Shown here piece by piece: positions 25,917 to 29,257 of a stretch of 64,000 bases of DNA (position 1 is its first letter; each line of letters begins with the position of its first letter). The notes beneath the pieces were generated by a model, which ran no database searches, was not told the DNA's origin, and saw only the letters and a list, made by a program, of their open reading frames with translations. The position numbers and the translations under genes were made by a program. Source of the DNA: Escherichia phage p000v; sequence record NC_055781.1; one strand, written 5' to 3'.

Positions 25917-26131
25917 TGGCTTCTACTATTACTGGGTTATTGGACTTTCAAGAAAAGGTCAACAAAATTTGTAGTGAATACTTAAAGTATCTTGAAGAAG
26001 ACCTTGAAGATTGTAAGGAAGAAGGCGAAGAAGATTATGCTGACCAGCGTCGTCGCCAAATCGAAGAGATGAGGCATTTTGCCAATATGGTATCTAAAGA
26101 ATCTTGGGCTTTAACTCCATTTTATCAATAA
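25916..26131 (+). CDS. hypothetical acidic protein
   Basis: 71-aa ORF coupled to upstream gene. Confidence 0.5.
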   Translation: MASTITGLLDFQEKVNKICSEYLKYLEEDLEDCKEEGEEDYADQRRRQIEEMRHFANMVSKESWALTPFYQ

Positions 26132-26135
26132 AGTA

Positions 26136-26186
26136 GTTTACTTCTCCTCTAGTTGTGTTACTATAGACCTGTCAACTAGAGGAGAA
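26136..26186 (+). promoter_or_regulatory. early-type promoter embedded in 14-bp RBS-sequestering inverted repeat
   Basis: GTTTAC; TTCTCCTCTAGTTG pairs with CAACTAGAGGAGAA (SD of gene at 26193); TACTAT -10 in loop. Confidence 0.6.
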
Positions 26187-26192
26187 ATCAAA

Positions 26193-26651
26193 ATGACTAT
26201 CAATTCGGAAGTTTTTATCCGTCGCAATAAACTCCGTCGAATCTTTGAAACGGAGTTTCGTCAAATCAACGCCAGTATAAAAGATGCTGCAAAGTCTCTT
26301 GGACTACCAGGCTTTCATATAAAGTATTCTCAACATCTCTTAGATCGTGCCATCCAGAGAGAAATAGATGAGAATTACGTTTTTGAATTATTTCATAAAG
26401 TAAAAAATCATGTTAAAGAAGTTGCAGAATTTTTATCAATGCCGGCACGTCCAGATGTTGATGAAGATTTTGTCGAAGGTGTCGAATATCGCCCAGGCCG
26501 TTTAGAAATAACTGACGGAAATCTTTGGTTAGGACTTACAGTCTGTCGCGAAAATCCAGCATTCAAAATGAAGACTCTTCAATGCAGAATGGCTATTATT
26601 AACAGTAAACGACTACCAGGAAAAGCTTCTAAAGCAGTGATTAAAATCTAG
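26193..26651 (+). CDS. hypothetical protein
   Basis: 152-aa ORF with sequestered SD. Confidence 0.6.
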   Translation: MTINSEVFIRRNKLRRIFETEFRQINASIKDAAKSLGLPGFHIKYSQHLLDRAIQREIDENYVFELFHKVKNHVKEVAEFLSMPARPDVDEDFVEGVEYRPGRLEITDGNLWLGLTVCRENPAFKMKTLQCRMAIINSKRLPGKASKAVIKI

Positions 26652-26659
26652 AGGTAAAC

Positions 26660-27202
26660 ATGAGAAAAGCACTACTCGCTGGTCTATTTGCTCTTTCGTT
26701 ATCAGCACATAGCTCCGAGCATACTTTTAGTAATGTCCAACTCGATAACTTGAATTATGCTTATCAGTTTGGGGAACAGTTTTCTAAGGATGGAAAATTT
26801 AAAACGCATGAAAATATGCATAAGAAAGGACTTGGATACATAATGGCCGCAATACTATGGCAGGAATCATCTGCCGGTATTAATCTTAAAGATAAGAAAG
26901 GTCACCATGCGTATGGAATGTTCCAAAACTATCTACCAACAATGAGGGCAAGAATTAACCAGCTCGGTTATAATATGACTGATGCCCAAATTAAGAAAAT
27001 GCTATCTAAGCGGTCTAATTCAGCAAGATGGGCTTATATCGAATTTTCTTATTGGTTAAATATACATAACGGGGATATAAGAAAAGCTATATCCTCATAT
27101 AATGCGGGATGGAAGACAAGTGCTGGAAGTAAATATGCTTCTGAAGTCCTAGAAAAGGCTAATTACCTTAAATCAAATAAACTACTGGAAATAAAAGAAT
27201 GA
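26660..27202 (+). CDS. secreted lytic-transglycosylase-like (SLT domain) protein
   Basis: Signal peptide MRKALLAGLFALSLSAHS; SLT motifs QESS, YGMFQ, SSYNAG. Confidence 0.75.
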   Translation: MRKALLAGLFALSLSAHSSEHTFSNVQLDNLNYAYQFGEQFSKDGKFKTHENMHKKGLGYIMAAILWQESSAGINLKDKKGHHAYGMFQNYLPTMRARINQLGYNMTDAQIKKMLSKRSNSARWAYIEFSYWLNIHNGDIRKAISSYNAGWKTSAGSKYASEVLEKANYLKSNKLLEIKE

Positions 27203-27546
27203 CCAAAATGTTGGCTTTAATAGTTGGCTTGGTTTCATTTAACGCTCTTGCTAATACTACATATACTGATGTAACGGAGTATACAAACAGAACGGCGTCT
27301 GATTATTGTGGTAAAAGTCAAGAGTGTAAAGTAGATTTTTCACAAAAATTGTTATATGCATATAAAGACGGAGAAAAAGATGGGGCGTCTAGTAGGTTCA
27401 AGGCGTCTACCTTAATTAAAAGATACTATAAAAAATGGCAAATATTAGAATGCTCGGTGGCGGAACCTAAAGATAAGGCAGCATGCAATTCTATGGTGGA
27501 CCGTCTAGTTGACTCTTATACTAGAGGACTTGCAGCAAGTGATTAA
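27199..27546 (+). CDS. secreted small Cys-containing protein
   Basis: Signal peptide MTKMLALIVGLVSFNALA; four Cys; ATGA-coupled to SLT gene. Confidence 0.6.
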   Translation: MTKMLALIVGLVSFNALANTTYTDVTEYTNRTASDYCGKSQECKVDFSQKLLYAYKDGEKDGASSRFKASTLIKRYYKKWQILECSVAEPKDKAACNSMVDRLVDSYTRGLAASD

Positions 27547-28006
27547 AAACTATATCAAGGGCGATATTGTCGCCCTGTTTTCTGAAGGTAAAAATGTTGC
27601 TCATGGTTGTAACTGTTTCCATACAATGGGCGCAGGAGTAGCCGGGCAATTAGCGAAGGCCTTTCCAAAGATTTTAGAAGCCGATAAACTTCAAACCGAA
27701 TTCGGAGACGAGTCTAAACTTGGGTCTTATTCGGTTTATGAAAAATATTTTAAGACCCATAAAGCTTATTGCTTTAATCTTTATACACAGTTTGAGCCGG
27801 GACCTAATTTTGAGTACTCTGCTTTAATGAATTGTATAATAGAATTAAATGAATTCGGAAAAAATAAGATAACAAAGCCTGTAATTTATATGCCAAGAAT
27901 TGGTGTAGGTATAGGTGGTGGAAACTGGGATATCATTGAAGAAATTCTTGATACATATTCCACTAAACTAGAAATTGTGATTGTTGATTGGGAACCATTG
28001 CTATGA
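27539..28006 (+). CDS. macrodomain protein (TARG1/OARD1-DarG-like), non-ATG start
   Basis: GDIVALF...VAHGCNCFHTMGAGVAGQLAKAF and MPRIGVGIGGGNW motifs; no in-frame ATG before the GDI strand; GTG 27539 proposed (TTG 27509/27530 alternatives). Confidence 0.65.
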   Translation: MIKNYIKGDIVALFSEGKNVAHGCNCFHTMGAGVAGQLAKAFPKILEADKLQTEFGDESKLGSYSVYEKYFKTHKAYCFNLYTQFEPGPNFEYSALMNCIIELNEFGKNKITKPVIYMPRIGVGIGGGNWDIIEEILDTYSTKLEIVIVDWEPLL

Positions 28007-28215
28007 AAGTACATTACCCACATCCGTTTGATCCTAAAAATAAAGCAGTAATTATTCGTCAATGGGAACGCATTTGTCGTACTAAATGTCCAATTAATAG
28101 TCCACATGACGTAGATAAAGACTACATCGGAACATTCGTTGAATATACCTTTATTGATAAGAAAGGTCGTAAACAACATGTAGAAGAATATTGCTTAAAG
28201 GTGACATGGTTATGA
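28003..28215 (+). CDS. hypothetical protein
   Basis: Start at MKVHYPH, ATGA overlap with macrodomain stop. Confidence 0.5.
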   Translation: MKVHYPHPFDPKNKAVIIRQWERICRTKCPINSPHDVDKDYIGTFVEYTFIDKKGRKQHVEEYCLKVTWL

Positions 28216-28243
28216 GTCAAACAAAAATTCTTACAGGTGCTAA

Positions 28244-28426
28244 ATGAAATTGACTAAAGAAGAGAAAACTAAACTGTTCGAACTTATCCATGACCTATTG
28301 GATGAGCAAGCAGCCACCAATGCGTACGATGAATATGCTCCTTTAACAGATGAAGAATATCAAGCATTGTTGGAATCATTTGACAGGAAAGAACAAGAAC
28401 TCATTGACTACGTGAATTCACTATAA
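28244..28426 (+). CDS. hypothetical acidic protein
   Basis: 60-aa ORF. Confidence 0.45.
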   Translation: MKLTKEEKTKLFELIHDLLDEQAATNAYDEYAPLTDEEYQALLESFDRKEQELIDYVNSL

Positions 28427-28435
28427 GGGACTCTT

Positions 28436-29017
28436 ATGGCTAGTTTAATTTTTACCTATGCCGCTATGAACGCTGGTAAGTCTGCTTCATTACTTACTGC
28501 CGCACATAACTATAAAGAACGTGGCATGGGTGTATTAGTTCTTAAACCGGCTATTGATACTCGCGATTCAAAAGGTGAAATAGTCTCTCGTATCGGTATT
28601 CGTCAGGATGCCAATATAATTACAAAAGACATGGATATCTTTGAATTTTATAAATGGGCAGCAGCACAAAAGGATATTCATTGTGTATTTGTTGACGAAG
28701 CTCAGTTCTTAACTACTGAAAAGGTGTATCAACTTAGTCGTATTGTTGACGTATACAATGTGCCAGTAATGGCATATGGACTACGAACAGATTTTAAAGG
28801 TAATCTATTTGAAGGTTCTCAAGCATTAATGGCTATTGCCGATAAGCTTGTTGAACTTAAAGGTGTCTGTCATTGCGGTAAAAAAGCCACAATGGTAGCT
28901 AGAGTCACGGAAGACGGACTTCCAATTACAGATGGCAGTCAAATTGAAATTGGTGATACCGATAGATACGTGTCATTATGCCGGAAGCATTGGAATGATT
29001 TGACAGGGTTGTTATAA
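28436..29017 (+). CDS. tk: thymidine kinase
   Basis: MASLIFTYAAMNAGKSASLL P-loop; colinear with T4 Tk including CHCGKKA zinc motif. Confidence 0.95.
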   Translation: MASLIFTYAAMNAGKSASLLTAAHNYKERGMGVLVLKPAIDTRDSKGEIVSRIGIRQDANIITKDMDIFEFYKWAAAQKDIHCVFVDEAQFLTTEKVYQLSRIVDVYNVPVMAYGLRTDFKGNLFEGSQALMAIADKLVELKGVCHCGKKATMVARVTEDGLPITDGSQIEIGDTDRYVSLCRKHWNDLTGLL

Positions 29018-29044
29018 ATACTAATATCTAACCAAGAGGTATAT

Positions 29045-29257
29045 ATGCAGCAATTAAACGAAAGACAACTTCGTAATCTTACTGTAACCCAATTGGATGA
29101 AATCCGAAGAGAATTAGGACATTCTATTTCTCATTTAAACGAGGATATCCGTCAAACTGGTTCTAAAGCTGATTATACACGCAAGCGCAAGCTGGAAAAA
29201 TACCTCACAGATGTTAAGGCCGTCCAAAGGCGAAAAATAAATACTGGCCAAAATTAA
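29045..29257 (+). CDS. hypothetical basic protein
   Basis: 70-aa ORF with SD. Confidence 0.5.

Follow-up and report, generated by a model that had tools for sequence, protein, structure and literature searches.

The Locus

The stretch of DNA analyzed here, which we call the window, comprises 64,000 nucleotides of Escherichia phage p000v (NC_055781.1), and the part of it that concerns us is a run of genes, all on the + strand and arranged as is classical for T4: regB–vs.1–vs–tk.4–tk.3–tk. The first, regB (26193–26651), is recognized by the Pfam model REGB_T4 with an E value of 1.6e-69; it is followed by vs.1 (26660–27202), which gives a weak SLT match, and by vs (27199–27546), which ends in the stop codon TAA at 27544–27546. 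Beyond the tk.4 position lie tk.3 (28003–28215; a DUF7202 match at E 1e-38), a tk.2-like ORF between tk.3 and tk, and tk itself (28436–29017). From 26000 to 29100, the DNA is 97–98% identical to that of phiEC1, AV110, JS09, APCEc01, and JK42, and the window is that of a T-even phage of the RB69-like genus Mosigvirus. Compared with JK42 and APCEc01, it lacks ~165 nt between tk.3 and tk.2, a segment that in those two phages carries a 207-nt ORF.

The tk.4 position is occupied by an ORF of 155 codons (27539–28006, + strand) that begins with GTG (27539–27541), ends with TGA (28004–28006), and encodes a macrodomain; its frame and coordinates were confirmed in the p000v window. It overlaps vs by 8 nt (GTGATTAA), and at its other end, its stop and the start of tk.3 share the ATGA at 28003–28006, a layout that is the same in T4, JK42, and APCEc01. 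These overlaps with both neighbors suggest that the gene is translationally coupled on both sides. The two Mosigvirus records JK42 and APCEc01 annotate the corresponding CDS, also of 468 nt and with the same 8-nt overlap with vs, and in near-identical phage GenBank records, the gene is labeled as a macro domain, as Poa1p-like (Poa1p_like), or as a phosphatase.

Relatives of the gene are found by tblastn in 2,763 of 50,697 phage records. The ratio dN/dS is ~0.06 against T4 (where dS is 1.4) and 0.06 against a related locus, L003, that is 95–96% identical, and judged by these substitutions, the gene is real and under strong purifying selection. Two minus-strand ORFs that overlap it (27521–27649 and 27886–28179) were set aside because it is the + strand reading that is so constrained.

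Where the Gene Begins

An earlier note on this DNA, made from its letters, had held that no ATG precedes a GDI strand near the N terminus of the protein and that the gene must therefore start at a non-ATG codon overlapping vs, either GTG or TTG. The first of these points stands as written: the frame contains no ATG from the upstream stop as far as the GDI strand, the first being that of M30, inside a glycine loop of the macrodomain, and therefore, a non-ATG start is required. Which of the two codons is it? The frame is open from TTG 27509 on, ahead of the GTG. Among related loci, 36 match from residue 1 onward; opposite GTG 27539, 33 of them have ATG and 3 have GTG, with ATT (Ile) always next, and T4 tk.4 has its ATG there, overlapping the vs stop (ATGA). 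Translation from the TTG is ruled out in locus L003 by an in-frame TAG that lies one codon ahead of the GTG. We rejected TTG 27509, which is not conserved, which is cut off by the L003 stop, and which is not where the orthologs have their ATG. By comparison with those orthologs, the start of the gene is GTG 27539. An AGAGGA (27523–27528, + strand) that ends 10 nt before it is a putative Shine–Dalgarno sequence; an element of the form [AC]GAGG[AGT] is kept at the same distance from the start in most Tevenvirinae orthologs, with CGTGGA in three.

The T-even alleles of tk.4 fall into two classes, 80–99% and ~55–59% identical to the window gene, with almost nothing between them.

Just inside the gene, 12 nt past the vs stop and across codons 7–15, lies a terminator-like match: an 8-bp hairpin, AGGGCGAT-ATT-GTCGCCCT, followed by GTTTTCT (27558–27583, + strand; the stem-loop proper is 27558–27576). 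Its minimum free energy is ~-13 kcal/mol in both of the divergent allele classes, and where the peptide is different, no such hairpin occurs. All of the cells (100%) are paired, the third-codon positions of the stem are invariant, and the loop codon is variable; one G:C to A:U compensatory pair in the stem suggests covariation, from very few events. Such an element may be a partial terminator, an attenuator, or some other mRNA structure.

Fold and Family

The earlier note had assigned the protein to the macrodomains of the TARG1/DarG class and had named a profile search as one check. Profile searches bear the assignment out. Pfam Macro (PF01661) scores 26.6 bits against a gathering threshold of 22 (E 6e-6), and the family profile aligns by hhalign at 99% probability both to DarG macrodomains (E 5.5e-18) and to a set made up of SCO6735, BT1257, and ALC1 (E 1.4e-18). 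PHROG 335, which bears the label “phosphatase,” is matched at E 4e-65, and a PADLOC DarG model is matched at 5e-8. Scans of the protein against Pfam, NCBIfam, and PADLOC gave no match besides Macro or DarG.

Structure says the same. Modeled with AlphaFold2 from an alignment of 75 sequences, the protein gives a mean pLDDT of 95.8 and a pTM of 0.91, and Foldseek finds 136 PDB matches for the model at E <= 0.001; every one of the 50 listed is a macrodomain or a design based on a macrodomain, and the top 18 are TARG1, Poa1p, BT1257, and DarG. The best structural matches are human TARG1/OARD1 (4j5r; E 5e-10) and Poa1p (6lfq–6lfu; TM 0.80, the highest TM-score), with DarG at 1.5e-7 and SCO6735 at 3e-6. 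The order changes when one searches the PDB by sequence with phmmer: BT1257 3e-11, yeast Poa1p 7e-8, SCO6735 1.9e-4, DarG 1.4e-3, and TARG1 3.5e-3 (the match to SCO6735, just 1.9e-4 here, is 2e-10 in a pairwise BLASTP). In other words, BT1257 and Poa1p stand nearer to the protein by sequence than TARG1 and DarG do. It is a macrodomain of the ALC1-like class, which holds TARG1, DarG, Poa1p, SCO6735, and ALC1, and not of the MacroD, PARG, or macroH2A type.

Membership of that class is not membership of the DarG or the TARG1 family, and the protein is a member of neither. The NCBIfam equivalog model for DarG (NF048014) scores 28.4 bits against a cut-off of 250, over positions 11–146 of 338, and the PADLOC DarG model is matched over positions 4–145 of 329, that is, over its N-terminal macro half alone. 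The protein ends at residue 155, and the C-terminal DarT-binding domain of DarG is absent. There is no DarT gene in the phage locus. DarG itself (5m31/5m3e from Thermus aquaticus and 5m3i from Mycobacterium tuberculosis) and the PhiKZ protein gp104 have the same fold and class as the window protein and share with it the loop-1 Asn, an MG.G loop, and a loop 2 of the G.G..GG..W type, and their biological opponent, like that of T4 Tk.4, is thymidine ADP-ribosylation by DarT2. They differ in carrying an FPTK catalytic lysine where the window protein has Gln, and PhiKZ gp104 matches M. tuberculosis DarG at 9e-25, whereas its match to the window protein is confined to a 23-residue BLAST segment.

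The Active Site

All three motifs on which the earlier note had based its assignment (the GDI strand, the glycine loop, and a second loop) are present, at residues 8–10, 20–42, and 118–130. The residues of the active site were placed by alignment, and the conservation described here is that of a family alignment of 75 members, phage and bacterial, reaching down to 33% identity. Ten of its positions are invariant (N25, C26, M30, G33, A35, D49, G62, N80, Y82, and Q84), and others are conserved in at least 90% of the members: G8, H22, G23, C24, F27, G31, P43, K60, and L61 as well as T83, G88, P119, I121, G122, G124, G127, G128, and W130.

The GDI (27560–27568) closes strand β-1 and aligns to the GDL of TARG1. 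In TARG1-class macrodomains, the Asp of such a strand contacts adenine. Loop 1, the phosphate- and ribose-binding glycine loop (VAHGCNCFHTMGAGVAGQLAKAF; 27596–27664), includes H22 and N25 (27611–27613), which align to H24 and N27 of SCO6735; N25 also aligns to the Asn whose mutation lowers activity in the PhiKZ protein (N23A) and, according to PMC9411070, in DarG. Loop 2, the diphosphate-binding loop (MPRIGVGIGGGNW; 27890–27928), contains G122 and G124, which correspond to G126 and G128 of SCO6735. Between the two lies the motif NLYTQ (N80–Q84; 27776–27790), and it is here that the window protein parts company with DarG and TARG1.

Q84 (27788–27790) shares an alignment column with the catalytic Lys84 of TARG1, with Lys80 of T. 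aquaticus DarG (in its FPTK motif), and with the equivalent lysines of M. tuberculosis DarG and PhiKZ gp104. In the same column stand Gln85 of SCO6735 and the equivalent Gln of BT1257 and of ALC1. The placement comes from two profile–profile alignments and a profile-anchored mafft --add, with the TARG1 sequence verified against the PDB: hhalign sets T83–Q84 opposite the T–K of DarG and N80 to Q84 opposite N81 to Q85 of SCO6735, and mafft --add arrives at the same column. A seven-sequence L-INS-i alignment shifted NLYTQ by one residue, with T83 opposite the catalytic Lys; we rejected this shift because the three profile-based alignments agree and also match the Asn four residues upstream. The earlier note's clade of TARG1/OARD1-like proteins, DarG included, thus holds as a class and fails at the catalytic lysine, which is an invariant Gln here.

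TARG1 and the window protein have in common an N-terminal YxKGD strand and an MPRIG loop; the dyad of TARG1, Lys84–Asp125, is replaced by Q84 and G126. What the window protein does have is the set of residues used by SCO6735: Q84, N25, H22, G122, and G124 stand where SCO6735 has Gln85, Asn27, His24, G126, and G128. Streptomyces coelicolor SCO6735 (5e3b) and Bacteroides BT1257 (2fg1/2afc), members of the same ALC1-like class, have Gln at the catalytic-Lys position with a conserved Asn four residues before it, and they share with the window protein an H-x-C-N in loop 1 and a PRIGxGxxGGxW in loop 2. The likeness has its limits. Identity is ~23%; the mobile loop of SCO6735, which is longer by five residues, and the DNA-contact lysines K34 and K89 are missing in the window protein, where A32 stands opposite K34 and the loop after Q84 is ~five residues shorter and lysine-free; and SCO6735 is a DNA-damage-inducible host protein and not a phage counter-defense.

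What can an enzyme do without the lysine? Hlousek-Kasun et al. (2022; PMC9411070) showed that SCO6735, which has neither the Lys nor the Asp, nevertheless cleaves thymidine-linked ADP-ribose off DNA and gives Streptomyces protection against DarT. Its Q85A mutant is inactive, and N27S is nearly so, since Asn27 positions Gln85; the mechanism proposed is water-mediated and substrate-assisted, with the Gln orienting the distal ribose (PMC9411070).

A different reading of the active site would follow the annotations. PHROG 335 carries its “phosphatase” label and several genomes the name Poa1p_like; yeast Poa1p, an ADP-ribose-1''-phosphate phosphatase, is the source of that annotation, and it gives both the highest TM-score (0.80) and the third-best PDB sequence match (7e-8). 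Iyer et al. (2022) favor small-molecule substrates for phage Macro domains in general. The main substrates of the window protein might then be small ADP-ribose derivatives (ADP-ribose-1''-phosphate, O-acetyl-ADP-ribose, or ADPr-based immune signals), and its effect on DarTG2, described below for the T4 ortholog, would be secondary. Of the residues probed in Poa1p structures (H23, S30, and F152), H23 is matched by H22; F152, however, lies opposite a Gly, in a C-terminal half whose alignment is weak (8 bits), and at the Q84 position, Poa1p lacks the Gln (phmmer aligns a Ser). SCO6735, the closest characterized enzyme with the same Gln, acts on DNA and protein (PMC9411070), and the one experimental phenotype of the ortholog is specific to DarTG2, a DNA modifier, a phenotype that small-molecule substrates leave unexplained. 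We think it unlikely that such molecules are the main business of the protein; activity on them may exist in addition.

The Ortholog in T4

Over 155 of 155 residues, the window protein is 85% identical to T4 Tk.4; the two have equal length and identical gene order, and the window gene is the ortholog of T4 tk.4 (adfM, an anti-DarT factor and macrodomain). Shared as well are the position of the start, the vs–tk.4–tk.3 overlaps, and every conserved residue of the family. The differences are an ATG start in T4 vs. GTG here and 23 amino acid changes, all of them outside the invariant positions. The phage that carries the gene here is a Mosigvirus (RB69-like); the DarTG2 phenotype is known from T4.

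That phenotype comes from the HIDEN-SEQ preprint of 20 November 2025 (bioRxiv 10.1101/2025.11.20.689424), in which a T4 transposon library was screened on a DarTG2 host. There, tk.4 was the single significant, conditionally essential gene; a clean knockout sensitized T4 to DarTG2, and the gene was named adfM. The same screens reported adfN as the match on DarTG1. These measurements were made in T4, with a single DarTG2 system as the opponent. The authors, noting that Tk.4 is structurally like M. tuberculosis DarG, wrote that enzymatic removal of ADP-ribose from DNA “seems likely” (bioRxiv 10.1101/2025.11.20.689424). Johannesman et al. (2025; PMC11825919) had found that T4 without adfA and adfN (the latter a NADAR-family anti-DarT factor) is still resistant to DarTG2, which had predicted a further factor such as tk.4.

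The gene is, then, already known: it had been annotated before, and the function of its ortholog has recently been characterized. The anti-DarT role that the earlier note had proposed has been demonstrated genetically for T4 Tk.4, and its transfer to the window gene is by orthology, which makes it a prediction for p000v. A counter-defense gene had been picked out from sequence alone, and the hypothesis matches the T4 transposon screen.

How Would the Protein Protect?

With gene, start, fold, class, orthology, and conserved residues established, we infer enzymatic removal of ADP-ribose from DNA and a role for the Gln in it. During infection, host DarT2 would ADP-ribosylate thymidines in single-stranded phage DNA and block replication; the macrodomain protein would bind ADP-ribose through its two glycine loops and hydrolyze the thymine–ribose bond, and the DNA would be restored. 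Catalysis would probably be of the SCO6735 type and not of the DarG/TARG1 type, the lysine nucleophile being replaced by an invariant Q84 held in place by an invariant N25. Our best reading, from the aligned residues and by analogy with SCO6735, is a putative Gln-type DNA ADP-ribosylglycohydrolase. Taken whole, the account we favor, and regard with good confidence, is that of a standalone Tk.4/AdfM ortholog of 155 residues, started at GTG 27539, which is probably an SCO6735-type hydrolase that frees DarT2-modified phage DNA.

The missing lysine deserves to be taken seriously. It is the catalytic residue of the two best-studied thymine–ADPr hydrolases, and for a protein that lacks it, activity is not to be assumed from the example of DarG or TARG1. 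One might imagine instead that protection is mainly noncatalytic, the macrodomain inhibiting the DarT2 toxin or, as a binder, shielding ADP-ribosylated DNA. The catalytically dead mutants SCO6735 Q85A, DarG K80A, and TARG1 K84A all still inhibit DarT in vitro, SCO6735 most strongly, so protection need not be hydrolytic (PMC9411070), and other phage anti-DarT factors, AdfA and AdfB, are reported to be small proteins that apparently neutralize the DarT toxin (PMC11825919). Against this stand the invariance, or conservation at 90% or more, of the SCO6735 catalytic set (His, Asn, Gln, and the two loop Gly) in 75 diverse phage and bacterial members and the lack of the domain by which DarG binds DarT. 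Near most of these members, moreover, a search with a single DarT2 query finds no DarT, which suits an enzyme better than a partner-specific inhibitor. Improbable is the word that we would choose for mainly noncatalytic protection, and hydrolysis of the SCO6735 type is the reading with which we continue.

There is also the phage's own ADP-ribosylation to consider, which the earlier note had offered as a second target: the protein might reverse or tune the work of Alt, ModA, and ModB or the RNAylation of host proteins. T-even phages encode three ADP-ribosyltransferases, a point in favor. The T4 Alt and Mod enzymes modify arginine, however, and we know of no macrodomain that cleaves arginine-linked ADP-ribose. 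The family, furthermore, is common among bacteria and occurs widely in phages for which Alt- or Mod-type enzymes are not known. SCO6735 and TARG1 do cleave ADP-ribose from proteins as well (PMC9411070), and yet tk.4 is conditionally essential on DarTG2, with adfN as the DarTG1 match (bioRxiv 10.1101/2025.11.20.689424). The idea found no support in our analysis, and we consider it very unlikely indeed. The preferred reading remains that of a hydrolase acting on DarT2-modified DNA.

A Possible Family of Its Own

The name AdfM now covers two different macrodomain subfamilies. Morgan et al. (Cell Rep 2026, PMC13309987) independently gave it to PhiKZ gp104, which removes DarT2-added ADP-ribose in vitro; gp104 is of the Lys type, and T4 Tk.4 is of the Gln type. 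In the literature that we examined, a partial survey, we found neither this distinction nor the exchange of Lys for Gln.

A scan of 185,579 species genomes finds at least 540 loci that encode close relatives of the window protein. The bacterial relatives are standalone ORFs of ~150–170 aa, none with a long C-terminal extension (52 of 80 fetched loci examined); these 52 have a motif of the HGCNC type, usually HGCNCF, and nearly all of them an NxYTQ. A tblastn search with one P. aeruginosa DarT2 query at E <= 1, which has limited sensitivity, found no DarT within 4 kb of any family locus tried (80 bacterial, 79 viral). As a signature for the family, we propose HGCNC...NxYTQ...PRIGxGxxGGxW.

We lean, if only somewhat, toward a separate origin: T4-type AdfM would not be a captured DarG antitoxin but one of a distinct, very widespread family of phage and bacterial macrodomains that stand alone and are Gln-based, SCO6735-like, and lysine-free, and in the T-even phages, a conserved hairpin with a U-tract, within the first 15 codons, may gate expression of the gene.

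What It Would Mean

This RB69-like phage is predicted to resist E. coli that carry DarTG2, which bears on its host range and on the choice of phages for therapy. With the role of the ortholog already in print, the residual value of the window gene lies in its lysine-free active site and in its possible regulatory hairpin. The mechanistic point that goes beyond the literature examined is that the AdfM of T-even phages lacks the lysine of DarG and TARG1 and resembles an SCO6735-type enzyme, and it would offer a compact and genetically tractable system in which to study how a lysine-free macrodomain cleaves the thymine–ribose bond. If the separate origin of the family is true, macrodomains of two different mechanisms have been enlisted by phages against the same toxin, DarT2: one of the Lys type, as in PhiKZ gp104, and one of the Gln type, as in T4 Tk.4.

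The macrodomain and its namesakes

Outside the phages, close relatives of the macrodomain encoded by tk.4 are common in bacteria (loci L083-L162), where they occur as standalone genes of ~150-170 aa. They are found in Rhodobacteraceae (Ruegeria, Roseovarius, Shimia), Desulfobacter, Hymenobacter, Verrucomicrobia and Vibrio aestuarianus, among others, and they share with the phage protein the motifs HGCNCF, NxYTQ and IGxGxxGGxW. The name AdfM was coined independently by two groups for different proteins, T4 Tk.4 (10.1101/2025.11.20.689424) and PhiKZ gp104 (PMC13309987). The PhiKZ protein is DarG-like (it matches Mtb DarG at 9e-25) and has the catalytic Lys, whereas T4 Tk.4 has Gln at that position, and BLASTP barely aligns the two.

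Two classes of tk.4 allele

Among T-even phages, what form does tk.4 take? When L005-L011, L049 and L065 were compared with the window and T4 (L001), the alleles fell into two classes, one 80-99% and the other about 55-59% identical to the window protein, and only 5 of 2,763 records were intermediate. One of the compared loci, L049, joins an upstream region and N-terminus identical to those of T4 to a body of the divergent class, and this junction suggests intragenic recombination.

The neighboring genes

Both genes immediately upstream begin with a signal-peptide-like hydrophobic N-terminus: vs.1 at 26660-27202 (MRKALLAGLFALSLSAHS) and vs at 27199-27546 (MTKMLALIVGLVSFNALA). Export of Vs.1 is plausible because the protein has a weak match to SLT transglycosylases; for Vs, known as the "valyl-tRNA synthetase modifier," a putative export signal is surprising. 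We note separately that the public record for Shigella phage JK42 (L002) calls its vs.1 homolog (861-1403) "endoribonuclease RegB," while the true regB of that phage adjoins it at 394-852; the label looks like a mistake in the database entry, not something that the window itself shows.

Downstream, between tk.3 and tk.2, the window is missing ~165 nt (compare JK42 2448-2611). In JK42, APCEc01 and further close relatives this stretch bears a hypothetical ORF of 207 nt, whereas the spacer in the window is just 28 nt (~28216-28243).

A conserved hairpin

The macrodomain gene contains, near its 5' end and 12 nt downstream of the vs stop, a hairpin on the + strand with a GC-rich stem of 8 bp and a loop of 3 nt, followed by GTTTTCT (27558-27583 in all). 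It is kept in T4 and also in those tk.4 alleles that belong to the divergent class (~57% identity). Across the allele comparison, synonymous sites in the stem are invariant and the loop codon is variable, and one stem pair shows a compensatory change, from G:C to A:U. The hairpin may be a partial terminator or attenuator of the regB-vs transcript, or it may serve as an mRNA structure.
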